Positions 4,896 through 63,739 of a DNA stretch of 64,000 bases are shown here, piece by piece (the stretch's first letter is position 1; every line of letters begins with the position of its first letter). The notes beneath the pieces were generated by a model. That model had not been told where the DNA came from. It saw only the letters and a program-made list of their open reading frames with translations, and ran no database searches. The stretch lies in the IMG/VR virus record IMGVR_UViG_3300043777_000086, positions 42,153 to 106,152 of that record; one strand, given 5' to 3'. Made by a program: the position numbers and the translations under genes. This DNA comes from a virus.

Positions 4896-5555
4896 ATGAC
4901 CCCCATCCGTCGCGCCCTCGCTGCTATCTCCCGCTTTGTCCGAGTTCGGATCTTTAGGCGTCCGGAACCTCCGATCGTAGAGCGGCCACCTGACGGCGCG
5001 ATCGTATTCCCAGAGCTTCCCTCAAGTAGAGCGCTTGAAGAGTATGGATCCGGAACTCAGGCGGTGGCTATCAGCACACTTCCTCGGCCGCCGATATCTG
5101 ACCTCATTCCGCTTAGGCCGGCGTCCTGTCTCTATGAGGTCACCTTCCAGCCACGGCCGTACTGGCTATTCGACTCGATCCACCTAACGGCTATCTGCGG
5201 GTCCGCGCTGCGGGTGATCGCGTTCCATGAGGACGTTTCGCACTGCATCTTCCAGGTGACCGTCACTCCGATCCCGATGCAGCTCGACCACGCGATGCTA
5301 TTGGGGTTGCATCGCGCGCGGGCAGAGGCGCCAGTCACGCTACGGATTGAGAGCCGGGTTACGTTTGAGGTCTACGAACTCCGCGCCACCTACCTGCGAC
5401 CGGACTTCCGGCGCGAGCAGGCTTCGGACGGGACGATGATGCTGGTGTTCAACGACCCGTTCTACAAACCGATAGCCGAATCCGAATTCGGATTACTTCC
5501 CTCAGCGCCGCACCACCGCAAGATCTACGGACCCGGCGCGGACGTGGGGTACTAG
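4896..5555 (+). CDS. hypothetical protein (opposite-strand insert)
   Basis: 219-aa ORF with own promoter candidate, convergent with late genes. Confidence 0.65.
   Translation: MTPIRRALAAISRFVRVRIFRRPEPPIVERPPDGAIVFPELPSSRALEEYGSGTQAVAISTLPRPPISDLIPLRPASCLYEVTFQPRPYWLFDSIHLTAICGSALRVIAFHEDVSHCIFQVTVTPIPMQLDHAMLLGLHRARAEAPVTLRIESRVTFEVYELRATYLRPDFRREQASDGTMMLVFNDPFYKPIAESEFGLLPSAPHHRKIYGPGADVGY
4938..4951. repeat. 14-bp dispersed palindrome copy GTCCGAGTTCGGAT
   Basis: exact match to RTCCGANNTCGGAY. Confidence 0.9.
5480..5493. repeat. 14-bp dispersed palindrome copy ATCCGAATTCGGAT
   Basis: exact match to RTCCGANNTCGGAY. Confidence 0.85.
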
Positions 5556-5869
5556 GGCTTAGTGACAGCCGGCGGGACTGTAGGGCAATTCCAGGTCTTG
5601 TCTTTGTTGACATGACATCCGGGACCGGCCCCATATTCCTTTATGAGCGTATTCTCGTAATCGACCCAGATCTTTTCTTCTTTTTGAGCCTCTTCGCGAG
5701 CCGCCACAAGGCGCAACTGGGCCTGCTGAAGCTCTAACTCCGCGCTCTGTACCGCCAGCATCTTCCTGGAGATTTCCTCATAGCGCTTCTCTGGGATAGG
5801 CGTAGGGGTGGTCGTAGGGGCAGCCTTATCATCCAGAAACATACAGATCGCCGCAACGAATAAAATCAC
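5552..5869 (-). CDS. small coiled-coil protein with hydrophobic N-terminus (possible fibre chaperone or spanin-like)
   Basis: hydrophobic N-terminus, heptad-rich middle, C-terminal Cys pair. Confidence 0.55.
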   Translation of the reverse strand: MILFVAAICMFLDDKAAPTTTPTPIPEKRYEEISRKMLAVQSAELELQQAQLRLVAAREEAQKEEKIWVDYENTLIKEYGAGPGCHVNKDKTWNCPTVPPAVTKP

Positions 5870-5879
5870 TAGGTCACCT

Positions 5880-7265
5880 CTAGCAATGCGTTATGATTCC
5901 GTCAGAGCTTGCGAACAAGGAGGTCGGGGTTCCTGTACAGGTAACTCCCGCTACTCCGCCGATTGTCATCCCCGTGGGCGTGAAGTTCCAGATTAGGGAC
6001 CCAAACCCAGAGGTGTAAACCTGTAAGGCAATTGTGGATTGCGTACCATTAGGCCCCATGTCCGCGATAGCAGCGCCGGAACCATTGAATATTTCCACCG
6101 CCCCTCCCGACCCTGAGAAACTTATCTCTACCTGGTTGGTGCCCGCATTCTGCATGAAAATTCCGGTGGAGTTCGCAACCACCATATTCTGACCGGATGA
6201 GTTATTCAGGATCAACTGTCCCGCGCCCGCTCCACTAGGGGTAATAGAAGCTAGTTCGATACTAAATCCTGAATTCCACAACTCTAGGTCGGTGCTGGAT
6301 TGAACTCCGGTAGAGGCACCCATAGATGACTTAGCCGCCCCAGTGTTGTCGAAAACTATTAATCGACCTCCCACGCCGGCTGTGAATGTGCCTTCGATCT
6401 GATTTACGCTGGTGTTTTGAACAAAGAATCCAGAGGAGTTAGCTATAAACGTATTACTTGCTACGTCTAAATCCACAGCTACATCGAGCTGATGAGCCGG
6501 GTTAGTGGTTCCAATTCCCACGAGACCTCCGGAGGTGATCCTCATCTTCTCGATGTTATTACCACCACTCAGGGCAGTAGCGAAGATAAGAGTTCCAGAA
6601 TAGTCTCCCGCTATAGAGTTCTCCTTATACCCCCAAATTTCGGCGGAATCCGCAAACGACCCGGTGCCTACGTAATCAAACCCGAGAGAGATATGCCCAC
6701 CAATTCCAGTCGCATGAGTTGAGGAACTATCCCGGATGACTGCCTGGCCGATGTTGGCAGAGCTTATACCCTGTACAGTTAGAACACCTATGGGGGCTAC
6801 TCCGATTCCCACCTTACCGCCGAAGAAGTCGAAATTAAAGGCATTGGTATTGAATGTCATATCGCCGGCGTTTGAATCATCTATAGACCACACAGTACCG
6901 CCAGTGGGATTCTCTAGGCGAATTCCATTCGACGCATTCAGAACATTATCCTGTAAGACCAACCCAGGTTCCGTGGGACCCGGAGAAAGAACAATGACCG
7001 AAGACAGGTGAGCGCCGCTTACATTTCCAGGACTCAGTACGATCGATCCATTACTGGACGAACGACCGGTGATTACTGAGGCGTTATTGCCGGATATCCC
7101 AAGGTCCATATAGGTTGCGCAGGAAGGGGTCTCATCACAGATCCGCAATTCTCCAGGGGCTGGCCCAGTCGGAACGGCTAGGATTTTTACCGGAGAGGAT
7201 AGGCTTATCTGTGCGTGAGCGCACGAAGCCAGCGCTAGAATGGAAAGAACTAATGCGTATATCAT
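5880..7265 (-). CDS. tail fibre-like protein with predicted signal peptide
   Basis: EKMRITSGGLVGIGTTNPAHQLDV and GKVGIGVAP fibre motifs; N-terminus MIYALVLSILALASCAHA-Q. Confidence 0.7.
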   Translation of the reverse strand: MIYALVLSILALASCAHAQISLSSPVKILAVPTGPAPGELRICDETPSCATYMDLGISGNNASVITGRSSSNGSIVLSPGNVSGAHLSSVIVLSPGPTEPGLVLQDNVLNASNGIRLENPTGGTVWSIDDSNAGDMTFNTNAFNFDFFGGKVGIGVAPIGVLTVQGISSANIGQAVIRDSSSTHATGIGGHISLGFDYVGTGSFADSAEIWGYKENSIAGDYSGTLIFATALSGGNNIEKMRITSGGLVGIGTTNPAHQLDVAVDLDVASNTFIANSSGFFVQNTSVNQIEGTFTAGVGGRLIVFDNTGAAKSSMGASTGVQSSTDLELWNSGFSIELASITPSGAGAGQLILNNSSGQNMVVANSTGIFMQNAGTNQVEISFSGSGGAVEIFNGSGAAIADMGPNGTQSTIALQVYTSGFGSLIWNFTPTGMTIGGVAGVTCTGTPTSLFASSDGIITHC

Positions 7266-7272
7266 AAAACCC

Positions 7273-7881: not shown

Positions 7882-10800
7882 TTCACCTGCGGCTGCGTCA
7901 ACTCAGACCACTTGAATTCCGCATACGATGCACGCTGCTGCCCTGAGAGCGGCAAGGACTCGACTCGGCTACTATCGGCGTAGATCTTAAACGGCGTGAC
8001 CCCGTCGATCGAGGTCACCACGATCCGGTATACCTTGCTCTTGTTGTACTGACCGTTCGCTTGATCCGGAAGGAAGAACCGTTCAATGTCCCGGTCGGCG
8101 TGCGCCGGTAGCTCCACCTGATAGAAAAGCGCATCGCCAGCCACGTACACAGAAACCACGATTGCCGCCGCGCATAGATACTCCACCCACATCTGCCGGA
8201 TCACCTTGAAGCCGACGTAGCCAAGGGTGTTCTCGTAAAGGTCTAGGATCGTGCGGTAGCACGGCTCATTCCAGACGTCGTAGGTGACCTTGAAGATCTG
8301 AGCTTTCCCTCCGGAGCCTGGAGTTGGTATCATCCGTGCGAGGCGCCCGATCAGGTTTGAGTTGCAGGTCAGAATCCTAACTCGATCCACGTCGGTGGTT
8401 GTGATTGTCCAGGTCTGGACAATTGACCCATCCAGTTCTAGTTGGAGCTGGCAGGCTACCCCGCCCGTATCGATATCCACTTCGATCCCGCGCCAAACCT
8501 TCTCGCACTTCCATCCATTATCGGACCACTCGGTTGCCGGTACGATGTCGGGCGGATAGTCGATCTTGGTAAAGGTGTACTTCCATACGCGCAGTGAAAC
8601 GGTGGTCGATTGCGGGTAGATCCGAACCATCTTTACGATCGTGTCGATTGTGATCGAGAACGACTGCTTGCAGCGCCCGGTTCCAGATAACACGAAGGAT
8701 TGTACGGCCGTATTCAATGTGCTGCCCTGCACTCCGGTGACGGTATCCATTAGCATAGTGGTCGTGGTGCCCCCGGTATCGTACTCAAACGAGACTGTTA
8801 TGAGGCGCTTGTCGAACGGACTCCCGAGATCGTCGTAATCAAACGAGTGGTCGACCGCGGCCTTATCGGCAGGCATCGTCACGAAACTCGCCCCCCACAA
8901 CTGGAACATGCCGTTCGTGGGGACCGTGCCCAGTAGAATCCGCGCCTTGCGCCCCATGATATCCGGATTGAGGGTGATCGTCACGTCGCGGGTATTTAGG
9001 GTTGCGGTGACGGTAACGGTTTGTACGATTGTGCCGTCGACCTCGATCTTGACGGGAATTGCGATGCCATTGGTATTCACATCCAAAACGAGCTGTTGGA
9101 AGTATTTCTCGAACGGAGATTTGCTATCGTCGTACTCCGTGAAGTTTACGATGTCCGGTGGGTAGTTCTCGGCCTTGATCTGATAACCGAAGATCTCGAA
9201 GTTTGTGGTGGTTGTCTGGGCGCGCAAGCGCAACTTCTTGGCGATGATCCCGTCTATGATCGCAAACTCTTGCTGTGACCGATCCGCGCCGGAGATCTGG
9301 AGCGTTTGGACTGCGAGTGTCTGTGTGTTCCCTCCAACGCCTCCGATTATGTCCAAGAACAAGTCGATCGCCTGCCCGTACGTATTGTAGTCTAGGGTGA
9401 TCGCGTAGATTCTCTTATCCCAAGGGTGTCCGTTGTCCTGCCAATCCGTGATCCGGCCTCGCTGAAGTTCAGCGAGGGGGATGTAGGTCATCTGAACAGA
9501 AAAGATCTGGACTATTCCGATTGAGCTGCCAGTGAACTGAATAGCAAAAACTCGGGCCTCTTTACCAAATACAGTTCCGCCCGACACGCCAAGCTGCAAC
9601 GGTACGAAGCGTCGGTTAGTAGTCGCAGTCAGGGTGAATTGATCTACCGGATCGAGAGTCCCGGAGTAATCGTAAAATAAGCCAACCGTGACCGTGTCAT
9701 GGGGGTTGCTTAATTCAACCAGCAGCTCCACGTATTGCTTATTGAGGGCTCGTCCCTCCGGGGCCATAATCCCAGTTGTGCCGCTCCATACGATCGGATT
9801 TCCGCTATTCGGGGCACCCGTGTAATGATCCGAGGTTCCCATCTCAAGCAGATGAAGCTCGGAGGTTCCGGGACCGTTTAGGAAGATTGCTCCAACGAGG
9901 CGCCCGGTGTCCTTCTCAACCATCATGGATGTTAACGCACCCTGCGCGGCCACGCTTGTGTAGACCACCGGCTCCCAGCGTTTGTAGATCAGGCTGTAGC
10001 GGAGTTGATTGATCAGATTCGACGTGTCCCGGTAGCTTAGGTACACGTAGTTATCGAATGATTGAATGAATATCTGATCCAGTTGAGTGAAGTCGATCGG
10101 ATTGAGCCCCTCCGCCCCTATGCCTACGAAAATAAGGTCAAGATCCTCAGTGACCTTAACGCACCCGCCGCCGGCCCAGGCGTAGATGCCGTCGTAGGAA
10201 ACGAACCAGATCTGATTGTTGACCTTGCACCACAGGTGCTTTCCGATCATCCCGCGGTCTGCTGGCGTCTCGGTGATGTTCAGGAACTGACCGAGCCAGA
10301 TCTGGAAGATGAAGATTGATTTCAGATTGAGCGAGACGTATCCGCCGCCGTAGTCCAACAGACCCATGATCGGGTTGTCGGGGCTACCGATGATCTGCTG
10401 GTGGGAATTCCCGGTCTCCAGATTTATGATCGGCCACTCTCCGGGATATCCGGCCTTGGACCGGTAGCAGATATGCGGGTTGTTGACGTCACCGGCGAGT
10501 AGTAGGCTGTTTCCTGCCTGGCACACAATATCGCAAGGCTGCCCGATTCTTACGCCGCAGGTGAGGGTCTCGCCCACGAAGTGTTGATTCTGGAGCCACA
10601 CCTGCACGAACCCAAGTCCGACCGAGAATACATTGGCGATCTCCTGATTGGATCCGGATCCGATCGTAAGCTGGGATCCGACCGTGAAATATAGGTGTGC
10701 GGATCCACCGATGTCTACCGAGTAAAGATTCGGATACGGATTGGATCCTCCGACAGGAGTCGGGGCTATCCCTAGCGTGGTGTTTAATGGCGTCGGCAGA

Positions 10801-12548
10801 GAACTCGCTACGGGTGGGTAATTGTCCACCTCAAGCTCGTCGTTACCGGCAATTAGCAGATCCGGGAAATTATCCACAAAGGTGGCGGTGAGCGGGAACC
10901 CATTGGAGTCCACACCCGGATTAGTGGAATACCCCAGGAACCTGAAGAGTCCGTCTGCGAACGTGCCTCCAGCGCGATACACAGCGATCGACCCGAATCC
11001 CGTTAGCGCAGGATTCCCGGTGGCACTATTATCGAAACCGTAGACTGTTACCTGTACAGCCCTGAGCTGCACGGTCACCATGTTCTGGGTGGCCATGTAT
11101 GGGCAGGGGTTACCCATCTCGCCGGTCACTGGATTGCGGAGGATGTACACGTATTGATACGGCAATGCCGCCGCATCGGTGACATTGTCAGGCCCCTGCG
11201 CGCCATGTGCGTAGATCGCTCCGACTTCTACTGAGAACGCCGGCGAACCCGTCACGGTCGCCGAGAGCGCCCACACCTGCACCCCGGTAACCTGCTTCCA
11301 GGAAAACGGACCATTCCCGGCGTTGCCCACCGGCAGGAAGTCGCTCTTGGCGATGTCGAACTCCATCCATACCGGGGCGGCCTGCGGGGCGATCTGGATA
11401 GGCTCCAACTGAGATCCGAACTCGGACGGGAAGATAACGTTTCCGATTGATCCGGCGGTGATCGCCGCCGCCACGGCCGCCTGGATCTGGGCTGCCAGGG
11501 TGGCGTTGTTGACGTAGGTCTGCACCGAGGAGGGCGCCACAGCCTTCAGGTAGTAGTCTGTATGCGAGCCGTTCACCAAAACCTGGATGTTGAGCTGCGT
11601 GATGTATGCCGGGTTTGAAACCCAAAGTCCGATATGCACCAGGTCGTCGCTCGAGTAACCGTCGTCGGGGCTCCCGGTAAACGACCAATCGACGCTGTTG
11701 TCCCACTCTCCGTAGTAGTTACTTCCGTTGGCGGTGAGCGTCGGAGCGGATCCGCCGGTCGAGGTCAGGTTTACAAGTTGGTAATACGAAACGATGGATC
11801 CGGTTGGAATGACTGTAGAGTACACATTAAAGGTGGTGGCGGTGATCGTGTCAACGAGCCCAAGCACCCCGTTCATGTACAGGTACATGCCGCTCAGGAT
11901 TCCGTTCATGGACGACGGCGTAACCTGAAAGTAGTCCTGGCTGATCTGTGTCGCGCTTGTGACGGTCGGAGATCCGCTGAGCCGGTTAGACCCTCCGATC
12001 TGCGTCGTGAGGATCACGTATCCGGGATTCCCTGGCAGGGCTGGGTTTGTTGGCGTAGCCGTCGCCGGGAATAGCGCGGCCGTGATTCCCCATGGATAGA
12101 GTTGGGTGAATGTTCCGTTATCCCACCGCATAGCAGTGGCCTGAGCAAAGAAGATGTACGGGGTGCCTGATGTCCCTGAGTTAAACGTAGCCGACTCCCA
12201 ACGCGAGGTCGGTAGTGATGAAGGAGCTAGGAAGGTGGTGGCGTATGTGTTCACGGTTGTGAACGTCGTGTACGGCCCCGTGCAGCGCCTCATCAAGGAG
12301 CCATCCCCGCAGTAGCGTGGATCAGTGGCGTCGTTGCCAAGGGAGAGCTTGGCAAGCGAGTGGATCACACCCAGAGGCGTATTGGCCGTGAACATCTGGG
12401 ATCCCCGGCGCGGCCCGATAGCCCCCTCTTGTAAGCTAGTCAGGTTTATGGTCGAGGAAAAAGCGCCCTCGGGCAGCAGGGCCGGCTCTTGCTTGAGGTT
12501 GACCCCTTTGAAGATTAAGGGGAAAGCCTTGTTTTTGGTCTCGGCCAT
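7878..12548 (-). CDS. tail nozzle / tubular protein B / stabilization-type protein with amplified C-terminal domains
   Basis: FKGVNL...NL...GAIGPRRG N-terminus, propeller-like RG.IG...IWFVSYDGIY, repeated D.G.P..K domains. Confidence 0.75.
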   Translation of the reverse strand: MAETKNKAFPLIFKGVNLKQEPALLPEGAFSSTINLTSLQEGAIGPRRGSQMFTANTPLGVIHSLAKLSLGNDATDPRYCGDGSLMRRCTGPYTTFTTVNTYATTFLAPSSLPTSRWESATFNSGTSGTPYIFFAQATAMRWDNGTFTQLYPWGITAALFPATATPTNPALPGNPGYVILTTQIGGSNRLSGSPTVTSATQISQDYFQVTPSSMNGILSGMYLYMNGVLGLVDTITATTFNVYSTVIPTGSIVSYYQLVNLTSTGGSAPTLTANGSNYYGEWDNSVDWSFTGSPDDGYSSDDLVHIGLWVSNPAYITQLNIQVLVNGSHTDYYLKAVAPSSVQTYVNNATLAAQIQAAVAAAITAGSIGNVIFPSEFGSQLEPIQIAPQAAPVWMEFDIAKSDFLPVGNAGNGPFSWKQVTGVQVWALSATVTGSPAFSVEVGAIYAHGAQGPDNVTDAAALPYQYVYILRNPVTGEMGNPCPYMATQNMVTVQLRAVQVTVYGFDNSATGNPALTGFGSIAVYRAGGTFADGLFRFLGYSTNPGVDSNGFPLTATFVDNFPDLLIAGNDELEVDNYPPVASSLPTPLNTTLGIAPTPVGGSNPYPNLYSVDIGGSAHLYFTVGSQLTIGSGSNQEIANVFSVGLGFVQVWLQNQHFVGETLTCGVRIGQPCDIVCQAGNSLLLAGDVNNPHICYRSKAGYPGEWPIINLETGNSHQQIIGSPDNPIMGLLDYGGGYVSLNLKSIFIFQIWLGQFLNITETPADRGMIGKHLWCKVNNQIWFVSYDGIYAWAGGGCVKVTEDLDLIFVGIGAEGLNPIDFTQLDQIFIQSFDNYVYLSYRDTSNLINQLRYSLIYKRWEPVVYTSVAAQGALTSMMVEKDTGRLVGAIFLNGPGTSELHLLEMGTSDHYTGAPNSGNPIVWSGTTGIMAPEGRALNKQYVELLVELSNPHDTVTVGLFYDYSGTLDPVDQFTLTATTNRRFVPLQLGVSGGTVFGKEARVFAIQFTGSSIGIVQIFSVQMTYIPLAELQRGRITDWQDNGHPWDKRIYAITLDYNTYGQAIDLFLDIIGGVGGNTQTLAVQTLQISGADRSQQEFAIIDGIIAKKLRLRAQTTTTNFEIFGYQIKAENYPPDIVNFTEYDDSKSPFEKYFQQLVLDVNTNGIAIPVKIEVDGTIVQTVTVTATLNTRDVTITLNPDIMGRKARILLGTVPTNGMFQLWGASFVTMPADKAAVDHSFDYDDLGSPFDKRLITVSFEYDTGGTTTTMLMDTVTGVQGSTLNTAVQSFVLSGTGRCKQSFSITIDTIVKMVRIYPQSTTVSLRVWKYTFTKIDYPPDIVPATEWSDNGWKCEKVWRGIEVDIDTGGVACQLQLELDGSIVQTWTITTTDVDRVRILTCNSNLIGRLARMIPTPGSGGKAQIFKVTYDVWNEPCYRTILDLYENTLGYVGFKVIRQMWVEYLCAAAIVVSVYVAGDALFYQVELPAHADRDIERFFLPDQANGQYNKSKVYRIVVTSIDGVTPFKIYADSSRVESLPLSGQQRASYAEFKWSELTQPQVN
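11414..11427. repeat. 14-bp dispersed palindrome copy ATCCGAACTCGGAC
   Basis: exact match, intragenic. Confidence 0.9.
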
Positions 12549-16615: not shown

Positions 16616-17127
16616 CGGTTTTGATGACAGGTCTACCGTGCTCTGGAAAGACGACGCTCTCCTTAGCGCTCTGTAATCTTCTACGCAACTCCGGACGCCG
16701 CGCCGAGATCCTCGACGGTGACGTGGTGCGCTTCGAGCTATGGAAGGAGCTTGGGTTCAGCCAGTCTGATCGCGAGGAAAACGTTCGCCGCCTTGGTTAT
16801 CTTGCGCGTATGCTCTCCCGGAACGGCGCTATTGCCATCATAGCGGCGGTGTCCCCCTACCGCGCCTCCCGCGACCATATCCGCAAAATATCCGACAACG
16901 GATTTATGGAGGTATACGTTAAGGCGCCTCTTTCTGTTTGCGAGACCCGCGACGTAAAGGGAATGTATGCCCAGGCGCGCGCCGGTAAGCGACCACACTT
17001 CACCGGCATCGACGACCCCTATGAGGCGCCGGTCAATCCCGAGGTAGAATGCCTAACAGATGAAGAGAGCGTCGCGGAGATCGTCGCCAAGATCGTGATC
17101 GAGCTTAAAAAGCAAGGAGCCCTCTAA
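16612..17127 (+). CDS. cysC: adenylyl-sulfate (APS) kinase
   Basis: TGLPCSGKTT, LDGD.VR, LGFS..DR.EN.RR, SPY, RDVKG.Y, FTGIDDPYE.P. Confidence 0.97.
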   Translation: MTVLMTGLPCSGKTTLSLALCNLLRNSGRRAEILDGDVVRFELWKELGFSQSDREENVRRLGYLARMLSRNGAIAIIAAVSPYRASRDHIRKISDNGFMEVYVKAPLSVCETRDVKGMYAQARAGKRPHFTGIDDPYEAPVNPEVECLTDEESVAEIVAKIVIELKKQGAL

Positions 17128-20392: not shown

Positions 20393-22543
20393 TTATGGGC
20401 ACTTCACCGCTTGCCACGATGGCGTGGTCACAATCGTAAGCACCAGTGGTTTCCCGTTCGGACCAGCAGGGAAGGTCTGCGTCGTAGTCACGGCCTTGCC
20501 GGGGCAGGTCTGGTAGGTGGTTGTTGCCGGCGTAAGCGTAACCGTCGCGCTCGCGGAGACACCCGACACCGTGGCCGTAATCAAGGCCGAAGATGCTGTC
20601 GGGATGCTCGCAGGGGCCGTGTACAGCCCCGAGCTTGAGATTGCGCCGATGTTGGCGCTCCACGTCGCGCCCGATGGCGTCGCCGTGAACTGCTGCGTTT
20701 GACTGGCGCTCAAGGTTGCCGTGGAGGGCGAGATCGTCACGGTAACGGGCGTAGGCGGCGTCAGGCTGATCGTGGCCGTCGCGCTCACACCAGACGCTAT
20801 CGCCGTGATCGTCGCGGTGCTGGCGCTGGTGATCGACGCGGGCGCGGTATACAGTCCGGTCGCGGAGATTGTCCCTGTAGACGCGCTCCAAGTCACGGCG
20901 GTGCCACTCGGCGTCACTGTGGCCGTGAACTGCTGAGTCCCACCCTGCCCAAGCGTGGCGCTCGTCGGCGAGATTGTAATGCTCACAGTCGGCGGCGGGG
21001 TTGCTCCTCCGAGGTTCGCGCCGATGCCCGCAAGCGCGGTATTGCCCACAGGAAATGTCGTCAGGTTGCCGAACGTCGGGTTCAGGTTTGTGCTGCCCGT
21101 CAGGTTCTTGACTGCGGTCGGAACTCCCGCGCCGAAGAAATTGTTCGCGGCCCCGCTTACTGTACTACTGGTGGTCGTGATATCCGAGCCCGATCCGCTG
21201 CTCAAGATCTGCATGTACGGCGTCGTGCCATCCAGAATGTTCGATCCGAAATTGACCGTCCCTACGCCGCTTTCCGGGTAGTAAAGGAACTCGGGCGCTC
21301 CCCCCAAGGCTCCGTTATTGTAGAGCGTGTTGTTTTTGAATGTCGCCGCCCCGTTGCCGGTCACGGACCACGTCTGCAAATACACGCCCGCGAATGCCCC
21401 GCCATCAGGAGGTTGAGGACCTTGGCCGGTGTTATAGACCACGTTATTGTATATCTGCACTCCGGTCCCCCTGGACGCGTCCATATTCACGTAGACAATG
21501 CCGTCGCAGGCCGTGTCGTGGATGATGTTGTTCGCGATGATGACCGAATACGAGGTATCCCCGCTTACCGATGAATTTTGCTGAAAACCTCGACATCCGT
21601 TAACGTACGCAATTGTGTTCCACTCGAAGTCAAACGAAAAACTTTCGTCACCCAGGTAAAAGCCTTGCTGAAGAGCCGTAACGCTGCCTGCCGCGAGGTT
21701 CGTGCTGACGTTGTGGAGATTATTGCCATACCAGGTCGTGTTTGTCGCATTGAAGTTGCTTGCTCCTCCCTGCTCTCCGTTGGCGTAGGTCGCGGAGATG
21801 TTATTGCCAATGATCCGAATCCGCTGCGCTCCGTTCGGCCCCCAGCCCTGAATCCCTATGGCTTCGCTGCCACCACCAAGTAGCGTCAGACCGCCAATGA
21901 CCCAGTCTGTAACCGGCGTCGAAGCGCTGCCGGAAATATTCATCAGGCTAAGCGCCCCATGCCCGCACGCTGGATTGGCAACGTCTGTTCCGATAGTCAC
22001 TGTCGCATTGGGATAAGCCAAGAGTGCTTTCGGCGCAGCCTGCGTGCCCGACAGGTTCTGATTTATCTGGACGCAGTTATCGTATCCTCCGATGGCGTTA
22101 GGGTCTGGCGTCGTCGCGGTGACGTTGTTCTCGGCATAGATAATGTCACCAGGCGAGATCGAGTTAGTGGCGTGAGGGATCGTCGCCCACGGCGCAGCTA
22201 GCGTCCCAGCATTTGCATCACTTCCGCTTGTCGCTACAAAACGAAGGTTCCCAGCGCGTACCGTGAATGGAATGACATTCTGCGTCCCGGCCTGAAGTCC
22301 AATCTGGATTGACGCTACGCCCATAGGTATACTCGCCGGAACCTGAAAGGTGACCTTCGTCGGCGTCCACGTCTGACTCGCGGCTGTGATGCCCGCGATG
22401 CTGACCGCGCCTGTCGTTGATCCGAATCCTGTTCCGTAGACGCTCACGTAGGCGAGCGCGGGTCCACTGGTTATGTCGGTAAATTGAATGGTTTGGGCGA
22501 GCGCGGCGGTCGCGAACAATCCGATAAGTAAAAACCGTCTCAT
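20393..22543 (-). CDS. exported protein: IPT/TIG, right-handed beta-helix and two Ig-like domains
   Basis: signal peptide ..AALA-Q; G.GFG, GSDANAGT...PW.TI, N-rich helix repeats, 2x TISP..ATL...TQQFTAT. Confidence 0.8.
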   Translation of the reverse strand: MRRFLLIGLFATAALAQTIQFTDITSGPALAYVSVYGTGFGSTTGAVSIAGITAASQTWTPTKVTFQVPASIPMGVASIQIGLQAGTQNVIPFTVRAGNLRFVATSGSDANAGTLAAPWATIPHATNSISPGDIIYAENNVTATTPDPNAIGGYDNCVQINQNLSGTQAAPKALLAYPNATVTIGTDVANPACGHGALSLMNISGSASTPVTDWVIGGLTLLGGGSEAIGIQGWGPNGAQRIRIIGNNISATYANGEQGGASNFNATNTTWYGNNLHNVSTNLAAGSVTALQQGFYLGDESFSFDFEWNTIAYVNGCRGFQQNSSVSGDTSYSVIIANNIIHDTACDGIVYVNMDASRGTGVQIYNNVVYNTGQGPQPPDGGAFAGVYLQTWSVTGNGAATFKNNTLYNNGALGGAPEFLYYPESGVGTVNFGSNILDGTTPYMQILSSGSGSDITTTSSTVSGAANNFFGAGVPTAVKNLTGSTNLNPTFGNLTTFPVGNTALAGIGANLGGATPPPTVSITISPTSATLGQGGTQQFTATVTPSGTAVTWSASTGTISATGLYTAPASITSASTATITAIASGVSATATISLTPPTPVTVTISPSTATLSASQTQQFTATPSGATWSANIGAISSSGLYTAPASIPTASSALITATVSGVSASATVTLTPATTTYQTCPGKAVTTTQTFPAGPNGKPLVLTIVTTPSWQAVKCP

Positions 22544-27288: not shown

Positions 27289-27317
27289 AGTATAGCCTTG
27301 TCCGAGTTCGGACGCAA
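27289..27317 (-). promoter_or_regulatory. sigma70-type promoter with the 14-bp palindrome (27300-27313) across its spacer
   Basis: TTGCGT-17 nt-TATACT containing GTCCGAACTCGGAC. Confidence 0.7.
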
Positions 27318-33322: not shown

Positions 33323-35851
33323 TCAGTTCGTCACGTTATAGCTCAGGCAGGCGGGGTTCGATGAAGGCGAGCTTGCCACTGTGATAGTGAAGGATGTCCC
33401 CGGAGTCCTCGCTGAGATCCAAGAGTTGACGTAAGTTGTGTTGCACGTCACGCTGAGTTTAGTGCCTAGCGAAGAATCAAACGTTAGTTGGATCTGGCTA
33501 TTCGCGGTCACGGCGGTAGTTGCCACAACGACAGTGGTGGCTGATACCGCTACAGTAACCGACCCCGCCGCTGCCGAACCGCATGTCCCGCCAGCGCTAG
33601 AGCAATTCGTACTTGTCGATATTGTCGGGAAGATCCCAGTGCTTGAGATGGTGTTCACGCCCTTGGAATCTGGGGTTATGGAGATCCCCGCCCCTGGTAG
33701 TAGCGCGTCGGTAGAGAATGCCGCGAGATTATTATTTGTCGTGCTCCACTGACTCGCCGTGCCCCCGGCCGTGCCGCTCGCGAATGGCTTGTATCCTATC
33801 CCTGGCCATGCCGTGGCTGTGGTGGATCCGAGCGTGAGGTTTGTTAGAGTCAGACCCCCCGATACGATCACGTTTGAGACATCCAAACGGAAGCGCTGGT
33901 TCTCGAGATCGTAGGTAATCCACCAGTTTGCGGCGGATGGAACCCAGGAACCGGAACCAACAGCTTTGAGCGTCAGCGCTCCGAGATTAGACGGGATACC
34001 CCCCGTCTCGAAGTTGGTCCCACCGGACGGCGATGTACAGATGAGCGTGTCGTTCGTTGTCGAGGTCGTCGAGATCAAACAACTATAATCCGTCAACTGA
34101 TTTGCGGCCGCCGCTCCAGACCCACCTGCTCCGCAATTACCGTTTAGTAAAGGAGCGTTCGTCGTGGTGCTACATCCTGTGCCGGTCCAGAGGGCTGCGA
34201 TGTCGCTGAAGGTTGCTATCGTAAATGGTCCGGTGCCGTTGCCTTTGAGGGGTCCTGTGAGCGTCCCCGCTCCGGATCCTCCGCCAGGAACGGCCAGAAT
34301 CCCGGTGACTTGAAACTTTTCAATTTGCCCGCTCGAATTAGAGGGGACGACGGTCTGCCCGTTATTTGCCACGCCGGTCTCGAAGTTGATGCCGGTCTGG
34401 TCTGAATTGGAAACGCTATTGGTTTGTACGGCGGATACGATTCCAGGCGTTCCGGCAGTGCCAGGCGCACCGCCTCCAGCCGCGTAACATTTTCCCGTGA
34501 AGGCCGCATCGAACAGACATGTCGGGCTGGTCGTATTCTGCCCGGTGACGCGCTTAGGGTTTACGGAGTTGCCAGAGGAATCCTGAGCCGTGACAGCGGC
34601 TCCGATCACGGCGCCTGTTATCGTGCAGGACGTCGTCGCCACCAACGTACATGACGCTGGAGTTCCGGATCCTCCGCCTGTCCCGCTGCCACACTGGGTC
34701 TGCCAATTAGTTGCGTCCGAGGTAATATCACAGCCCTGTCCGGTCGTCAGCGTCAAAGATGAGGACCCACCGATCGTACCTGAGGCTGGAGTCAGTGTCG
34801 CCGTTCCCGCCCCGATATCCTTAGCTGAAAACTTGAATCCAGCCGGGAAGGATCCGCCGGCCGCCGGGACGGTTACCGCAACAGCCGAGGCGTTATTGAA
34901 CGTGACGAGCTTCTGGCAATCCGAAGCCAGGATCGTATAGGATGTACCGGTTTGCGGATTTACTAATTCCTGACCGGATATGGTCCCCGTTACAGTAATG
35001 GTTCCGCCGCTTAACCCGCAAGCAGCTACGATCGACGTGACTGTTCCTCCGGGAGCCCCATTCAGATTGGCGTACGGGTATCCGGTCGGGATATCCCCGA
35101 TCAAAAGCGGCCCTACCGTTGGTGCGGCGGCAGCGGATCCCGACCCCTGCTCGATTACAAATTCACGTGTGGCGGTAGTGTTCCCGGCCAAGCGAGTCGG
35201 CGTCCCGCTCGCTCCTCCGTAGAGGAGATCACCTAGCGTTGTTAGCGGATTATTTAGAATCGAGAACGTTCCCAGCCCAAGATTGGTCCTTGCTGTGGCG
35301 GTGCTAGTCAGATCGCTCAGGTTATTTGCCGTCTGAAGGAAAGATGCAGCGGGCTGCACCGCTGCGCTGCCGAGTCCAAGGTTGGTGCGCGCCGTCGCCG
35401 CGCTTGTAAGATCCGAAAGGTTATTAGCCCTTATGAGAAAGATTCCACCGCCGCCACCTCCACCCCCGCCGATCCATAGGTAGCGCGTGCCGGCGTAGGA
35501 AATAGAAACTGATCCTGTGATTGCGAAGCTTATAAAGTCGTGGTATCCGGTTCCGACGCCGGCGCACGATGCGGAGGTGTTGGTAACTAAAGATCCGGTA
35601 TCCGAAAATGACGTCCACGGGCCTGTATCCACACCGTCCTGGTATTGGATTTGGGCAGACCACGTACCGGTTCCTGTTGCACAGAATGTGTGGGTTGTTG
35701 AGGCGTAAAGCGCCTGCGATCTATTATCTATGATTGTGGCAGAGCTAGTGATTCCTGCGACCACATTCGATCGGATGACCTCCGGTGCCTGTTGAGCGGA
35801 AATCCGAACTCGGACAAATAGGAGCGCTAGGATCAATAGAATTTTTTTCAT
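33323..35851 (-). CDS. tail fibre protein with predicted signal peptide
   Basis: 2x ANNLSDLTS.ATARTNLGLG, TT.GDLLYG, QTGTSYT..ASD fibre motifs. Confidence 0.8.
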   Translation of the reverse strand: MKKILLILALLFVRVRISAQQAPEVIRSNVVAGITSSATIIDNRSQALYASTTHTFCATGTGTWSAQIQYQDGVDTGPWTSFSDTGSLVTNTSASCAGVGTGYHDFISFAITGSVSISYAGTRYLWIGGGGGGGGGIFLIRANNLSDLTSAATARTNLGLGSAAVQPAASFLQTANNLSDLTSTATARTNLGLGTFSILNNPLTTLGDLLYGGASGTPTRLAGNTTATREFVIEQGSGSAAAAPTVGPLLIGDIPTGYPYANLNGAPGGTVTSIVAACGLSGGTITVTGTISGQELVNPQTGTSYTILASDCQKLVTFNNASAVAVTVPAAGGSFPAGFKFSAKDIGAGTATLTPASGTIGGSSSLTLTTGQGCDITSDATNWQTQCGSGTGGGSGTPASCTLVATTSCTITGAVIGAAVTAQDSSGNSVNPKRVTGQNTTSPTCLFDAAFTGKCYAAGGGAPGTAGTPGIVSAVQTNSVSNSDQTGINFETGVANNGQTVVPSNSSGQIEKFQVTGILAVPGGGSGAGTLTGPLKGNGTGPFTIATFSDIAALWTGTGCSTTTNAPLLNGNCGAGGSGAAAANQLTDYSCLISTTSTTNDTLICTSPSGGTNFETGGIPSNLGALTLKAVGSGSWVPSAANWWITYDLENQRFRLDVSNVIVSGGLTLTNLTLGSTTATAWPGIGYKPFASGTAGGTASQWSTTNNNLAAFSTDALLPGAGISITPDSKGVNTISSTGIFPTISTSTNCSSAGGTCGSAAAGSVTVAVSATTVVVATTAVTANSQIQLTFDSSLGTKLSVTCNTTYVNSWISARTPGTSFTITVASSPSSNPACLSYNVTN
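35802..35815. repeat. 14-bp dispersed palindrome copy ATCCGAACTCGGAC
   Basis: exact match, inside signal-peptide coding region. Confidence 0.9.
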
Positions 35852-46568: not shown

Positions 46569-47237
46569 TCAGTCTCCTATGAACGCGAGGTCGTCTTCCT
46601 CTTCGGTAGCCGAGGGATTATCCGAACTCGGATTTATCGTGATGACTTCCGAATCCTTCGGGAAGAATGAATCGGCCGTGATCGGATGGGGTTCCAGTGT
46701 ACTCATCACCGGACCAGGTACTTCTATCTTTGGTCCAAGCCACCGCATCAGAACATCCGTACTGAACGGCTCCCCAGCCACCTCTGATAGTTGCGCGTAC
46801 TGTTCGCGGTTCAGGAAGAAGGTACTACACCGGGACTCGAGATCCCAAAACCAACCGAGCGCCATCGCCTGGTCCATCATCTCCTGGATCATCTGGTCGA
46901 CGGTCATCCCCTGTACGTCCGCGCGCTGGCGCATTTCCTCGTGTAGTGATGGATCGATCTTCCACCGACCAACCATCGCGCCTTCGCTCACCCCAAGTCC
47001 ACGCTCGACCGCTTCGATCAAGGCATCACTATCGGCCATCCTCTCGTCTATGTCGCACAGCCGCTCAGCGGTCGCGGGAGACAATAGCATCGCGCCCCTA
47101 GAGATTCCATCAAAGACTTCGTTAGCGAACATTGAGATCTTCTGGGCGTCTTCGCCTTCACCCTCTACCTGTTCGAGGATCCTTTTGTAGGCCGCTTCGC
47201 TCAGTTCGATCGTGAGCGGGATCTTAACCTGATTCAT
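46569..47237 (-). CDS. hypothetical protein with RHH-like segments
   Basis: AAGGAGAGG RBS; KIDPSLHEEMRQRADVQGMTV. Confidence 0.7.
   Translation of the reverse strand: MNQVKIPLTIELSEAAYKRILEQVEGEGEDAQKISMFANEVFDGISRGAMLLSPATAERLCDIDERMADSDALIEAVERGLGVSEGAMVGRWKIDPSLHEEMRQRADVQGMTVDQMIQEMMDQAMALGWFWDLESRCSTFFLNREQYAQLSEVAGEPFSTDVLMRWLGPKIEVPGPVMSTLEPHPITADSFFPKDSEVITINPSSDNPSATEEEDDLAFIGD
46620..46633. repeat. 14-bp dispersed palindrome copy ATCCGAACTCGGAT
   Basis: exact match. Confidence 0.9.
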
Positions 47238-50749: not shown

Positions 50750-51372
50750 TAGTTGGCCTCGATGTTGAACCCGTCGTAGTTGTCGTGTGCCTTATCGGCC
50801 CTGCTCATCCGAATCTGGATCTCGGCGTCGCGCCGCGAGGACCCCTCGGACATCAGATGCCTGATCTCGGTTTCCTCCTCGATCGTAAGGTCGGAACCCG
50901 GCGGTCGTCCGTTGGCTCCGAAGGCATTCTGCGTGTAGGACCGAACGGTAGTTTCGAGTTCGATCAACGCAGAAGTCTGGGCCTTAGCGGCCTTGATTAG
51001 CCCCGACCCCATTGCCTTTAGGAACTCCCCGTGGGCCGACAACGCCTCAATAGATTTACCCTGTGCCGCGTGGCGGGCGCCATCGGAATCGAACTGTGCG
51101 GATAGCGCCCTGGATTGAGAATCCAGGCTTTGTTTGAGTGTCTCGATATGCGAGGAGAGGACTTTCGTGCAGTCGGATATGCTATCCAGACATTTGATCT
51201 GTTCGGAGTTAGAAGTCCGAACTCGGACAAAATCGCGATGAAGTTTAGATAACTGCCCGTAGAGGAGCAATCCTATAACAAGGACCGCCGCGATGAGCAG
51301 AAACAGGAGGACGCCTATGATGGTTGCTTCGATCAACGATCTATTGTTGTTGACATTTAATCCCAAAGTCAA
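50749..51372 (-). CDS. N-terminal TM coiled-coil protein
   Basis: long TM then coiled coil; start uncertain. Confidence 0.7.
   Translation of the reverse strand: MTLGLNVNNNRSLIEATIIGVLLFLLIAAVLVIGLLLYGQLSKLHRDFVRVRTSNSEQIKCLDSISDCTKVLSSHIETLKQSLDSQSRALSAQFDSDGARHAAQGKSIEALSAHGEFLKAMGSGLIKAAKAQTSALIELETTVRSYTQNAFGANGRPPGSDLTIEEETEIRHLMSEGSSRRDAEIQIRMSRADKAHDNYDGFNIEAN
51215..51228. repeat. 14-bp dispersed palindrome copy GTCCGAACTCGGAC
   Basis: exact match. Confidence 0.9.
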
Positions 51373-51386
51373 GTAGCCTGAACGAC

Positions 51387-51602
51387 ATGGATCAGATAGT
51401 CTCCGTGCCTGAAGTGCGGAAGCGTGGCCAGCCGAGGATCCCTGAAGAGAAAAAGAGGGTCCCTCTTCATGTGCGGGTCATGCCCTCAACGCGTGAGTTC
51501 CTTAAACGCGCGGGGGCTAAGAACAACGGGCGGGCGGTTGATATGGTGGTGTCGGCTTACCGGAGACTAGCGGCTAAGATGAAGGCGCTGGAGAAGAACT
51601 GA
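51387..51602 (+). CDS. small RHH-like DNA-binding protein
   Basis: KRGQP...KRVPLHVRV...T.E.L......GRA.D; TTGACA-18-TAGCCT upstream (51350-51379). Confidence 0.65.
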   Translation: MDQIVSVPEVRKRGQPRIPEEKKRVPLHVRVMPSTREFLKRAGAKNNGRAVDMVVSAYRRLAAKMKALEKN

Positions 51603-52284: not shown

Positions 52285-53055
52285 TTACTCCTCCTTGGCC
52301 TTGATCCGGATCTCTAGAATCCGTTCCTTGTCGGACTCGACCATATCGATCGAGATGTACTCGAAATCCTTGCCGACCTTCTTGCCGATCACGCGCACCT
52401 TGGCGTTCTTTCGCGGAAGCAGCATCGCCACATGCCTAGCGTTAGAGAATATCGCTGCGATCTCCGGCCAACTGATCTTCCCTGACTGAACCCATTCCTT
52501 GAGTGTGCGGACTCGCTCCCCGACCGGATCGCTATCCTCGACGACTTCCTCGTCCACTGACGGTGGGGACGGGGGTTTCCGTTTGTGCTTCTTGACCTCG
52601 ACATCTTTCTCCTCGCCCTTGCGGACCTCGGCCACAAGACCAGGGCTGACACCGCACAGCGTTGCCAGCGCGCGATCGCTGCGGCGCCGGAGGGTCTTGT
52701 CGGCTAGCGCTCTCTCTACTGCGTTGCGCTTATCGGCCGGGGTGAGCCTGAGTCCATGCTGGCAGTTTCGTTCTAGGCTCATCTCAAGAGCCTTCGTCAG
52801 GGCCTCTTCTGGCTCACACTCGTGGATCTCTCCCTCGATCGATTTAATGCTGCGCTGCTGCGCGGCGAGGAACCGGTGCGCCCCATCCGCCAAAATCAGC
52901 CGGTCGTCGCCATCACGGAAGAGGTCGATCGCAGAGAACTTGACGCCCTCCTTCATGGCCGCGGCGTATTCATCAATCACTTTCGATGAGATCTTCAGGC
53001 GAATCTGGATCTCCGGCAACATCACGATGTCTTTCAATGCGATCTGTTCGGGCAC
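52285..53055 (-). CDS. ParB/Srx-like (StrR-type) DNA-binding protein
   Basis: QIR, LADGAHR ParB box, N..HGL.L...DKR.AV, HTH SDRALATLCGVS..LV..VR. Confidence 0.85.
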   Translation of the reverse strand: MPEQIALKDIVMLPEIQIRLKISSKVIDEYAAAMKEGVKFSAIDLFRDGDDRLILADGAHRFLAAQQRSIKSIEGEIHECEPEEALTKALEMSLERNCQHGLRLTPADKRNAVERALADKTLRRRSDRALATLCGVSPGLVAEVRKGEEKDVEVKKHKRKPPSPPSVDEEVVEDSDPVGERVRTLKEWVQSGKISWPEIAAIFSNARHVAMLLPRKNAKVRVIGKKVGKDFEYISIDMVESDKERILEIRIKAKEE

Positions 53056-59199: not shown

Positions 59200-59213
59200 A
59201 TCCGACATCGGAC
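59200..59213. repeat. 14-bp dispersed palindrome copy ATCCGACATCGGAC, intergenic
   Basis: exact match, followed by an extra half-site TCGGAC. Confidence 0.9.
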
Positions 59214-59823: not shown

Positions 59824-59824
59824 C

Positions 59825-60556: not shown

Positions 60557-60585
60557 TTGACAGATCGGCAAGGCTGCCGTAAACT
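60557..60585 (+). promoter_or_regulatory. sigma70-type early promoter
   Basis: TTGACA-17 nt-TAAACT with A-rich upstream. Confidence 0.8.
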
Positions 60586-60631
60586 TCGAACCGCATCGAT
60601 CCGATGCTACTTTCACTCCAGGAGACTTCCC

Positions 60632-60799: not shown

Positions 60800-61097
60800 T
60801 GCACCCACGCTTAAACGAGCCGCTCAGTTGGCCCTGGAATGCCAGGACGCCTGTAATCTCTCGGGCGTGCTCGCGACGTTCAAAGAGATCGTTCACGAAA
60901 CATTGTGGCCGGAAGCGCGGCGCCTGGGTAAGGGAACCGATTGGATCAATCAACACCCTATCTGCGCGTTGTTTCTCGACAAACTGACGGACCTAAATCG
61001 GCGGCAGGATTTCTCTACCGCCTACGATGCCGTCTCGGAGATCGCCGGCGCGCGTGAAGAAAATCCGACTTCGGATACGGAGGAATCACATGCCTAA
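60792..61097 (+). CDS. hypothetical phage protein
   Basis: QDACNLSGV...N.HPI..LF.DKL; GGAGG RBS. Confidence 0.7.
   Translation: MPNAPTLKRAAQLALECQDACNLSGVLATFKEIVHETLWPEARRLGKGTDWINQHPICALFLDKLTDLNRRQDFSTAYDAVSEIAGAREENPTSDTEESHA
61063..61076. repeat. 14-bp dispersed palindrome copy ATCCGACTTCGGAT
   Basis: exact match, just before RBS of next gene. Confidence 0.88.
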
Positions 61098-61425
61098 GCG
61101 CGATAAATTCACTGAGGCCGTGACTGCCGTGGAAGGCTATCTACTTCGCCACGCGCCGAAGGGGATGACGCCGAAAATATACACCTATCGCGAGCTTGAC
61201 GCACGCCAGCGACCATTCGCTGGTTGCATTGTGGCGGAAGTTGCTTTCGATAACGATCGCGGCGGGTGTTCGTTCATGCAGGTTGATGTTCCGTGGGGCA
61301 TCGCCGTTTGCGGTCAGACGGAGCGCTGTATACTCGCGTTTGTCGAGGATTGGCCGAAGGATGAACTCGACGAGGAGCTACAGCGCCTAAGTTATTGCTT
61401 CACGAGCGCGGAGGTAAAATCATGA
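61090..61425 (+). CDS. hypothetical protein
   Basis: GGAGG RBS. Confidence 0.65.
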   Translation: MPKRDKFTEAVTAVEGYLLRHAPKGMTPKIYTYRELDARQRPFAGCIVAEVAFDNDRGGCSFMQVDVPWGIAVCGQTERCILAFVEDWPKDELDEELQRLSYCFTSAEVKS

Positions 61426-62792: not shown

Positions 62793-63610
62793 ATCAGGCG
62801 GATTTGTTGGCGATGTTGTCCTACCGGCGCCCGGCGTGGTCGAGGTCGGAAGAGGAGTTTATCCGGCGCTATATTGATCCATTGCCGGGGATCTATTCGG
62901 ATGAGTTCGGAAACCGGATCTTGCCTCGCGAAGGCGCGCGTGTGATGATTGCCTGCCACACCGACACGGTGCATAGAGTGGGCGGTAAGCAGCGCGTTAC
63001 GGTGCAGGGCGGAGTCGCGCAACTGGCGGCCTTGAGTACTTCAAATTGCCTAGGCGCGGATGACACCGCGGGGGTTTATGCGGCGCTTCGGATGATCGAA
63101 GCCGACGTCAAGGCAACGTTTGTTTTCCATCGCGCCGAAGAGATAGGCGGGCATGGAAGCGAATGGCTCGCGAGGTGGTATCCGCAATGGATCGAGAAAT
63201 TCGATATCTGCCTCTCGCTCGACAGACGCGGTACGGAGGATATCATCACAAGCCAATTCGGGGGATTCACGGCGTCTGATGAGTTCGCCTGGTCCCTCTC
63301 GGACGCGCTCGATATGGGGCATCGGCCTACTGCCGGTGTCTTCACGGATTCGGCGAGCTACGCGAATCTGATACCGGAGTGCTCGAATTTGAGCATCGGA
63401 TACGCGGGAGAGCACACGGCGAAGGAAGCGCTCGATCTCGGGTATCTGGAGCGGGTGATCGAGCGCCTGATAGAGGTCGATTGGGAAAGTCTGGAGGTGG
63501 CGCGCGATCCAGATGAAGACCAATACGGAGATCCGTTTGACTGGTTTACGAAATACGAGATGGAGTTGCTACAGCAGGCGCGTAACTCTCAGGGCCTAGA
63601 AACGCAGTGA
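62789..63610 (+). CDS. M28/M20-like metallopeptidase
   Basis: CHTDTVH, LGADD.AG, EEIG, DRRG, FTD, NLSIGY..EH. Confidence 0.88.
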   Translation: MNQADLLAMLSYRRPAWSRSEEEFIRRYIDPLPGIYSDEFGNRILPREGARVMIACHTDTVHRVGGKQRVTVQGGVAQLAALSTSNCLGADDTAGVYAALRMIEADVKATFVFHRAEEIGGHGSEWLARWYPQWIEKFDICLSLDRRGTEDIITSQFGGFTASDEFAWSLSDALDMGHRPTAGVFTDSASYANLIPECSNLSIGYAGEHTAKEALDLGYLERVIERLIEVDWESLEVARDPDEDQYGDPFDWFTKYEMELLQQARNSQGLETQ

Positions 63611-63689
63611 TGCGCTTCCATTCCCGCAAACAGGCGCAGCGGTACACGCTGCTGCGTCGCAACCGCTCGCGCCGGGCGCGCTCTATGGC

Positions 63690-63739
63690 TTGACCGATGG
63701 CCGCACTTAGTTTACAATTCAACCCGTCCGAAATCGGAC
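63690..63739 (+). promoter_or_regulatory. sigma70 promoter followed by 14-bp palindrome (63726-63739)
   Basis: TTGACC-17 nt-TACAAT then GTCCGAAATCGGAC at the expected transcription start. Confidence 0.8.

Follow-up and report, generated by a model that had tools for sequence, protein, structure and literature searches.

Dispersed short palindromes are a known kind of feature in phage genomes, as in the Cluster O mycobacteriophages (Corndog), where a 17-bp dyad, TGTTCGG-NNN-CCGAACA, is present in 34 copies that are shared in roughly equal parts among intergenic gaps, the 5' ends of genes and their interiors (PMC4351075). These dyads are absent from the hosts examined and lie mostly away from promoters; a dimeric regulator is suspected, their function is unknown, and the authors ascribe indels to recombination between the repeats (PMC4351075). 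In Cluster A phages (L5 gp71, TipsytheTRex), a repressor acts at more than 20 oriented sites and blocks both initiation and elongation of transcription (PMC9283540). Here, we analyse a 14-bp palindrome, RTCCGA-NN-TCGGAY, that recurs throughout a 64,000-nucleotide stretch of DNA from an uncultured soil phage (hereafter the window), which comprises bases 42153-106152 of the 106,152-bp IMG/VR record IMGVR_UViG_3300043777_000086 (CheckV completeness 100%; genome label G000). The sites are most likely docking places for a small phage-encoded DNA-binding protein, rather than for the ParB-like protein encoded at 52285-53055 to which the first-pass annotation had tentatively attributed them.

The closest descriptive parallel to this network is the Cluster O dyad. 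Both consist of one short palindrome, in tens of copies over a genome of 70-100 kb, with invariant arms and a variable centre. The two differ in sequence (they are unrelated), phage lineage and host phylum; moreover, the arms measure 5-6 bp here and the centre 2-4 bp, the site changes between relatives, and the orientation bias is clear, whereas that of Cluster O is only slight. Like the stoperators of Cluster A (more than 20 per genome), the sites are short and distributed genome-wide, occupy promoters and the short gaps between genes, and point along the direction of transcription. In contrast, Cluster A stoperators are 13-bp asymmetric sites of temperate phages, recognized by a monomeric two-domain helix-turn-helix (HTH) immunity repressor, whereas the sites described here are largely palindromic, many lie within genes, the candidate reader is a predicted ribbon-helix-helix (RHH) protein and no integrase was found. 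In Cluster A, the sites and the repressor reportedly co-evolve between lineages, and to our knowledge only the Cluster A stoperators have both a known reader and a known mechanism.

Dispersed palindromes of 13-16 bp, each with one dedicated protein, are also found in the MatP-matS, KorB-OB (RK2) and Noc-NBS systems, which organize or silence chromosomes or plasmids. KorB and Noc are CTP-dependent ParB clamps, and MatP, whose matS sites are dispersed palindromes of 13 bp, contacts DNA in part through an RHH domain. The 14-bp motif is within the size range of these palindromes; unlike for KorB and Noc, the ParB-like gene does not track the sites here, and the sites are oriented with transcription. 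Small RHH proteins such as Arc and Mnt of P22, and CopG, recognize inverted 4-bp boxes, spaced by about one helical turn, as dimers of dimers (TAGA-N7-TCTA for Arc), and the architecture common to our sites, GTCY-N6-RGAC, has the same geometry as the Arc operator. In contrast to these proteins, which have one or two operators at their own promoters, we find a genome-wide set with none at the promoter of the RHH-like gene. New here are a family-wide 14-bp architecture in at least eight lineage-specific versions, the orientation bias, a natural negative control (the relative G008, which is devoid of sites) and comparative evidence against the ParB-like attribution.

The motif is strongly in excess over chance. 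The exact pattern (RTCCGANNTCGGAY) matches the window 10 times, against a mean of 0.04 and a maximum of 1 in 100 dinucleotide-preserving shuffles, and the relaxed pattern RTCCRR-NN-YYGGAY (RTCCRRNNYYGGAY) matches 19 times, against 0.46 expected. The first-pass annotation had listed ten exact copies, eight near copies fitting the relaxed pattern and a 1-mismatch copy, had called the motif rare on a rough estimate and had proposed the comparison with shuffled sequence. All of these copies are present and the rarity is borne out; one further near copy, at 10448, had been overlooked. Six of the ten exact copies in the window have the AC/GT centre, as claimed, whereas the TTT/AAA flanks are present at several sites but are not general. 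The sites lie every few kb, both in promoter-like contexts and deep within genes, also as described previously:

4938..4951: exact site GTCCGAGTTCGGAT, intergenic, between a pair of divergent genes (one minus-strand, one plus-strand)
5480..5493: exact site ATCCGAATTCGGAT, within a plus-strand open reading frame (ORF), close to its 3' end
11414..11427: exact site ATCCGAACTCGGAC, deep within a conserved gene for a 1556-aa protein
27300..27313: exact site GTCCGAGTTCGGAC, 27 nt ahead of the start of a minus-strand gene, filling the spacer of a TTGCGT-17-TATACT promoter-like element on that strand
35802..35815: exact site ATCCGAACTCGGAC, in the signal-peptide-like start (first 20 codons) of an 842-aa tail-fibre-like gene
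46620..46633: exact site ATCCGAACTCGGAT, 51 nt before the stop codon of the 222-aa gene adjoining the terminase gene
51215..51228: exact site GTCCGAACTCGGAC, within the 5' portion of a minus-strand gene and 159 bp ahead of the RHH-like gene
59200..59213: exact site ATCCGACATCGGAC, in the control region from which leftward and rightward gene blocks diverge
61063..61076: exact site ATCCGACTTCGGAT, immediately upstream of a GGAGG ribosome-binding site and ATG
63726..63739: exact site GTCCGAAATCGGAC, beginning 8 nt downstream of a TTGACC-17-TACAAT promoter-like element, 15 nt ahead of a spike-like gene's ATG
Starts at 8407, 10448, 23010, 36973, 37490, 43469, 50807, 53372 and 60025: nine degenerate RTCCRR-NN-YYGGAY sites
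Start at 16890: 1-mismatch copy

The complete 106,152-bp genome contains 19 exact copies of the motif, and 21 of its core TCCGA-N2-TCGGA, with about 0.07 expected. In an unbiased count of palindromes with arms of 5-7 bp and gaps of 0-8 bp, the 14-bp motif was the sole enriched palindrome of the genome (the runner-up of the 5+N2+5 geometry has 4 copies), and it is also the top dispersed 9-11-mer when the terminal tandem array is set aside. The genome contains 19, 11 and 32 copies with 0, 1 and 2 mismatches, respectively, a profile opposite to that expected by chance, and thus the motif is sharply defined. The motif pattern read backwards has 0 matches in every record analysed, which together with the shuffles rules out an origin in chance or base composition. 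The other enriched repeats of the genome were considered as well: its top 10-12-mers derive from a 24-bp tandem array at the record ends and are unrelated to the palindrome.

Megablast against isolated phages gave no match for G000. No record exceeds 26% identity to its terminase, and the nearest ones come from phages of the acidobacterium Tunturiibacter. Relatives were sought as IMG/VR contigs by means of the terminase and of an alignment of the capsid protein, and the unbiased palindrome count was repeated on each whole record. These searches yield a family of 75-100-kb phages, with a distinct version of the site in most lineages:

G000: 106 kb, 100% complete; RTCCGA-NN-TCGGAY, 19-21 copies
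G001: 83 kb; (AT)GTCCGGATTCGGAC(AT), 21 copies
G002: 95 kb, 94% complete; GTCCAGATCTGGAC, 11 copies
G003: 35 kb, partial; GTCCAR-NN-YTGGAC, 10 copies
G005: 33 kb, partial; (A)GTCCAGAACTGGAC(T), 9 copies
G009: 18 kb, partial; GTCCAGATCTGGAC type, 3 copies
G007: 96 kb, 96% complete; GTCTGKATMCAGAC, 12 copies
G016: 34 kb, partial; GTCTGGGGTCAGAC, 6-8 copies
G019: 35 kb, partial; GTCTTGACGTAGAC, 9 copies
G006: 75 kb, 75% complete; ACTCCTATATAGGAGT, a different, 16-bp perfect palindrome, 13 copies
G008: 99.9 kb, complete with terminal repeats; no enriched palindrome, 0 copies

The common 14-bp architecture is GTCY-N6-RGAC, in which the inner six bases are fixed per genome and different among genomes. 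The positions of the sites are partly retained: about half of those in the closest relative, G003, lie at places orthologous to G000 sites, with both arms changed. Such places are the 3' end of the 222-aa gene adjoining the terminase gene, the 5' end of a 120-aa gene and the signal-peptide codons of tail-fibre-like proteins, and G003 also has a site at the place matching the divergent control region at 59200. In the tail-fibre-like orthologues of three genomes the palindrome occupies the signal-peptide codons (..LSGFGL.., ..MSGFGH..), each time in the genome's own version:

Genome position 36752 and window position 35802: tail-fibre signal-peptide sites of G000
G001, position 31841: tail-fibre signal-peptide site
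G003, position 4214: tail-fibre signal-peptide site

In G008, 7-11 copies of the promoter-like words AAAACTCTTGACT and TAAAATATTAGAC are present.

The terminase matches, together with a phage TnpB that is 67% identical to a copy in a Terriglobia metagenome-assembled genome, hint at an acidobacterial host. The gene for this TnpB (IS605 OrfB / Cas12f-like) lies on the minus strand at genome positions 20399-21571 and has homologues in the relatives G005 and G007. In five Acidobacteriota genomes of 5-8 Mb used as host proxies, 1-5 copies of the motif were found in each, a density several hundredfold below that of the phage. The first-pass annotation had named equal density in the host chromosome as an outcome that would speak against a phage-specific network; the proxies give the opposite result.

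With regard to gene context, the sites prefer intergenic space. Over nine genomes, 39 of 105 sites are intergenic, where 15.9 would be expected (p = 3e-8); as genes were called by longest ORF, intergenic space is understated in this comparison. A typical intergenic site lies 2-35 nt past a stop codon and 5-30 nt ahead of the next start. By rough gene calls made for G000, roughly a third of its sites fall between genes or at the 5' end of one and the remainder within genes, among them the genes for DnaB, a SNF2 helicase and the 1556-aa and 1057-aa proteins, while in G006 10 of the 13 ACTCCTATATAGGAGT copies are intergenic. A further G000 site, at genome position 24079, sits within the spacer of a TTGACG-19-TATAAT element.

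The sites are also oriented. Where the centre of the palindrome is asymmetric, one form predominates on the sense strand (majority:minority):

G000: 8:3, not significant alone
G001: 11:4
G005: 5:0
G007: 10:1
G016: 3:2
G019: 6:1

Pooled over these six lineages, orientation with transcription amounts to 43:11. Since the majority orientation was picked after the fact, the fair figure is the Fisher combination of the two-sided per-genome tests, p = 0.011. The bias persists in the intergenic sites alone, and codon constraints are thus not its explanation. As for stoperators, there are many copies of one short site, a preference for intergenic space and an orientation with transcription, and the latter two match the logic of the Cluster A system.

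The anatomy of the sites points to a two-fold symmetric protein on duplex DNA, and not to hairpin pairing. The outer R/Y positions do not covary in G000 (A..T 6, G..C 5, A..C 5 and G..T 3), and positions 6 and 9 are A and T in all 21 core copies, though they are unable to pair across a 2-nt loop; each RTCCGA half thus acts as an independent half-site. Pairs of a cognate and a variant half-site outnumber sites in which both halves are variant. The sites of G000 that lie in genes use the three reading frames almost equally (10, 9 and 9), showing that the motif is imposed at the DNA level. A repeated peptide motif is thereby ruled out as its cause, and the recurrent peptides DPNSD, SPELD, SGFG, SEFG and VRVR are by-products of the DNA motif.

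For the identity of the reader, every G000 protein was screened against the six-frame translations of eight genomes, and a single gene, encoding a protein of 71 aa, was present in all palindrome-bearing records yet absent from G008. This RHH-like gene was found in 12 of the 12 palindrome-bearing contigs in which it could be sought, and was not found in the complete, siteless G008 genome even at E <= 50. A KTSC-like protein of 73 aa showed the same pattern by BLAST and was rejected as the reader, as a hidden Markov model (HMM) finds a homologue in G008. PHROG and Pfam scans of the conserved small proteins gave nothing useful. The candidate gene and its promoter are:

51387..51602, plus strand: 71-aa predicted RHH protein, candidate site reader, whose presence tracks the palindromes
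51350..51379, plus strand: TTGACA-18-TAGCCT promoter-like element, ending 7 nt before the RHH-like ATG

The family of the RHH-like protein counts about 15 members among 5.8 billion proteins, and the pattern KRVxLxVRV-PST..FL...GRAxD is conserved in 7 to 15 homologues. The AlphaFold2 (AF2) monomer model (pLDDT 83) places residues 24-31 in an extended conformation and helices at 33-41 and 47-70; the predicted fold is that of a strand followed by two helices, and polar and hydrophobic residues alternate along the N-terminal strand. RHH proteins make up nearly all of its best structural matches: ParD2, MazE6/9, PrpA, MatP (3vea, Z 3.5), NikR, TraM, ArtA, AmrZ and CdbA. A structure search of the Atlas likewise returned RHH_1 and Arc/TraY clusters, with TM scores of 0.56-0.60. 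The strand residues predicted to face the DNA differ by lineage, with H, Y, W or F at position 5 in phages with TCC sites and G or T in those with TCT sites.

The leftward late operon, about 70 kb long, encloses the RHH-like gene in antisense orientation. The gene is separated from the terminase gene by 2-5 kb, and its start is 14 bp from that of a divergent gene for a 207-aa membrane protein. A TTGACA-type promoter ends 6-9 nt before the ATG in G000 and in at least five of the six other relatives examined (the -35 box is poor in G001), and at this distance the RHH-like mRNA would be leaderless. The spacer TCCCAAAGTCAAG is conserved in G003.

The symmetry typical of sites on double-stranded DNA, the co-variation with lineage, the restriction to the phages and the kept positions argue for a dedicated phage-encoded reader. 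On the basis of sequence and predicted structure, we tentatively favour, with somewhat less than even confidence, an operator- or stoperator-like network read by the predicted RHH protein. We infer three steps, namely that a protein binds the sites, that the binder is the RHH protein and that binding affects transcription. The RHH protein would bind GTCY-N6-RGAC as a dimer of dimers, much as Arc and CopG do on their operators, and by analogy the geometry would suit such an assembly, or equally an HTH dimer. Given the location of the sites in promoter spacers, at transcription starts, in short intergenic gaps and within genes, and their prevailing orientation, bound protein would then act on the host RNA polymerase throughout the genome, through operators and polar roadblocks in the manner of stoperators. 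A bolder proposal, which we regard as doubtful, is that the network constitutes an independent stoperator-type whole-genome circuit in apparently lytic soil phages of about 100 kb, in which an oriented GTCY-N6-RGAC grid, with its specificity re-set per lineage along with a tiny RHH protein whose gene, antisense to the late operon, has a promoter of its own and a leaderless mRNA, relies on another DNA-binding fold and operates without lysogeny. If true, such a grid could time or insulate transcription, or tell own from foreign DNA.

The family forms a natural comparative series, with at least eight versions of one architecture, one swapped palindrome (G006) and one genome lacking both the sites and the candidate gene (G008), and the pairing between reader and site is thus directly testable with the 71-aa protein and 14-mers. 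If the pairing holds, genome-wide operator grids would be a general phage strategy, extending beyond temperate actinophages and beyond HTH repressors.

Several observations weigh against the assignment of the sites to the RHH protein in a stoperator-like role. The structural scores are weak (Z 3.0-4.0, Foldseek E about 1), low values being expected since only about 45 residues are aligned, and sequence searches of Pfam and the PDB returned nothing for the 71-aa protein. The correlation of presence and absence includes one negative genome only, G008. The split between contact residues and sites follows the phylogeny, so that a single event could explain it; moreover, the predicted contact residues are identical in G000 and G003, although the preferred half-sites are GTCCGA and GTCCAR, respectively, while G002 and G005 share the half-site and differ in these residues. 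In none of the genomes does the promoter of the RHH gene itself carry a cognate site, an unusual situation for an RHH repressor. Sigma-70-like promoter matches are found close to only about 6 of 83 sites, with about 3 such cases expected by chance; this also rules out a sigma-70 promoter element as the identity of the motif. No tyrosine or serine integrase was found, which speaks against classical immunity, and there is no evident prophage to silence. Finally, the site centres of G001, G007 and G019 are asymmetric and strictly conserved, a feature for which a symmetric dimer alone does not account.

These asymmetric centres keep alive a reading at the RNA level, which we consider unlikely, in which the palindrome forms a short hairpin (5-bp stem, 4-nt loop), similar in size to boxB or a Cas6 hairpin, that is read by a phage RNA-binding protein or endoribonuclease for processing, stability or control of the ribosome-binding site. 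The co-orientation of the asymmetric centres with transcription agrees with such a role, in particular as it reaches about 15:1 among intergenic sites outside G000, and so does the location of many sites 2-35 nt past a stop and 5-30 nt before a start codon, some touching the ribosome-binding site. In a few cases a longer hairpin is capped by the palindrome, as at genome position 1487 and at G001 position 28334, where a T-run follows. However, on the sense strand the wobble-compatible and incompatible combinations of the non-covarying outer pair are equally common, and the symmetry of positions 6 and 9 is not accounted for by pairing. The predicted RNA hairpins are weak and uneven across the family (-2.2 to -8.9 kcal/mol), with a stem of only 4 bp in G019, it is sequence and not pairing that is conserved within a genome, and no RNA-binding protein or RNase was identified.

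An architectural role is also improbable, and in our estimate slightly more so. Here the sites, irrespective of the protein that recognizes them, would bridge or compact the phage chromosome, like matS/MatP, Noc/NBS or parS/ParB, and serve in organizing a replication compartment, in packaging or in segregation instead of in transcription. The spacing of the sites, every few kb throughout the genome and also deep in genes, is consistent with this view, as are the match of the RHH-like protein to MatP and the position of its gene near the terminase gene in every genome. Co-orientation with transcription and a threefold intergenic excess would not be expected of purely architectural sites, however; several sites lie exactly in promoter spacers or at transcription starts, and the 71-aa protein has no evident bridging or tetramerization domain.

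The reading put forward in the first-pass annotation was that the ParB-like protein loads at the sites as a KorB- or Noc-like clamp. The gene in question is:

52285..53055, minus strand: protein with a ParB/Srx-like N-domain and an HTH, the candidate of the first-pass annotation, which does not track the sites

In support, its ParB/Srx-like N-domain precedes an HTH and the gene lies less than 1 kb from the RHH gene in the four genomes that have both. The putative recognition helix varies by genome (QLVK in the two GTCCAR genomes, GLVA in G000, SFVG in G001). Among the four genomes with the gene, this HTH changes along with position 5 of the site, a co-variation of the kind that the first-pass annotation had proposed to look for. 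Six-frame HMM searches of the whole contigs with filters off detected orthologues in G001, G003, G005 and G008, and no homologue in G002 (94% complete, 11 sites), G007 (96%, 12 sites) or G006 (75%, 13 sites). With the gene missing in three site-bearing relatives and present in the siteless G008, the link to the sites is unsupported; sites in relatives without the gene are what the first-pass annotation had set as a refutation of this specific link. Furthermore, 77 unrelated IMG/VR phage loci with ParB-like homologues showed no dispersed palindrome. A few of these loci (L029, L032 and L074) contain 4 copies of short palindromes of their own, namely TAACA-N-TGTTA, TGTTA-N5-TAACA and GGGAAT-N-ATTCCC.

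The ParB-like protein itself is atypical. In the alignment of the four orthologues, ILADGAHRFLAA occupies the place of the GERRxR motif of ParB, KorB and Noc, which is replaced by DGAHR. There is no Pfam ParBc match at E <= 1, the nearest PDB sequences are sulfiredoxin and SbnI (E 0.4-0.7), and only PHROG 1033 labels the protein ParB-like. Pfam scans of about 45 proteins revealed no ParA-type ATPase. The attribution to this protein is not supported, and we retain it as a minor and quite improbable rival for the subclade that bears the gene; a tempting but unsupported ParB/parS annotation is thereby removed. The more general part of the first-pass idea, that a phage protein reads the dispersed sites, with stoperators mentioned as one option, fits all data: the sites are specific to the phages, differ from lineage to lineage, recur at orthologous places and point mostly with transcription.

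Least probable of all are other strand-specific signals, such as promoters in hairpin form that serve a phage RNA polymerase not yet recognised, priming signals of the lagging strand or recombination hot spots: the co-orientation with gene direction (confounded with replication direction), the many sites just upstream of genes, the phage's own DnaB, primosomal protein and sigma-70 region-2 protein, and the recombination to which the Cluster O authors attribute indels would be in line with them, but two thirds of the sites are within genes, the sigma-like gene is not common to the relatives, and the large proteins have no Pfam family match and the 1556-aa protein no PDB match either, on which grounds a virion or T7-like RNA polymerase was rejected. 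A search with PF00940 likewise gave no RNA polymerase, but its control was silent everywhere too. The sigma-70 region 2 (Pfam E 2e-7) is found in a 162-aa protein of the early region (L001:3714-4199), for which no homologue was found in the relatives.

Some further repeats were noted in these genomes. The 24-bp tandem array of G000 comprises at least 23 copies of a unit of approximately CTAGATTCCCGCGCCACGACGCTG (minus strand) and spans both ends of the record, at window positions 63900-64000 and genome positions 1-470. In translation it yields 8-aa repeats that belong to a spike gene of the gp5-like beta-helix type, with a weak match to Pfam Gp5_trimer_C, and the label 'direct terminal repeats' of the record may merely mirror this array. 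In G001, two local tandem arrays with periods of 51 bp and 27 bp mimic enriched palindromes, ACTCC-N6-GGAGT and GTGGCG-N7-CGCCAC:

L009:15290-15700: G001 tandem array
L012:15508-15940 (G001 75508-75940): G001 tandem array

Lastly, GATC is 2.5-3 times commoner in the whole G000 genome than base composition predicts (CGATC 628 against 226 expected), and GATC is also the centre of the G002 palindrome.

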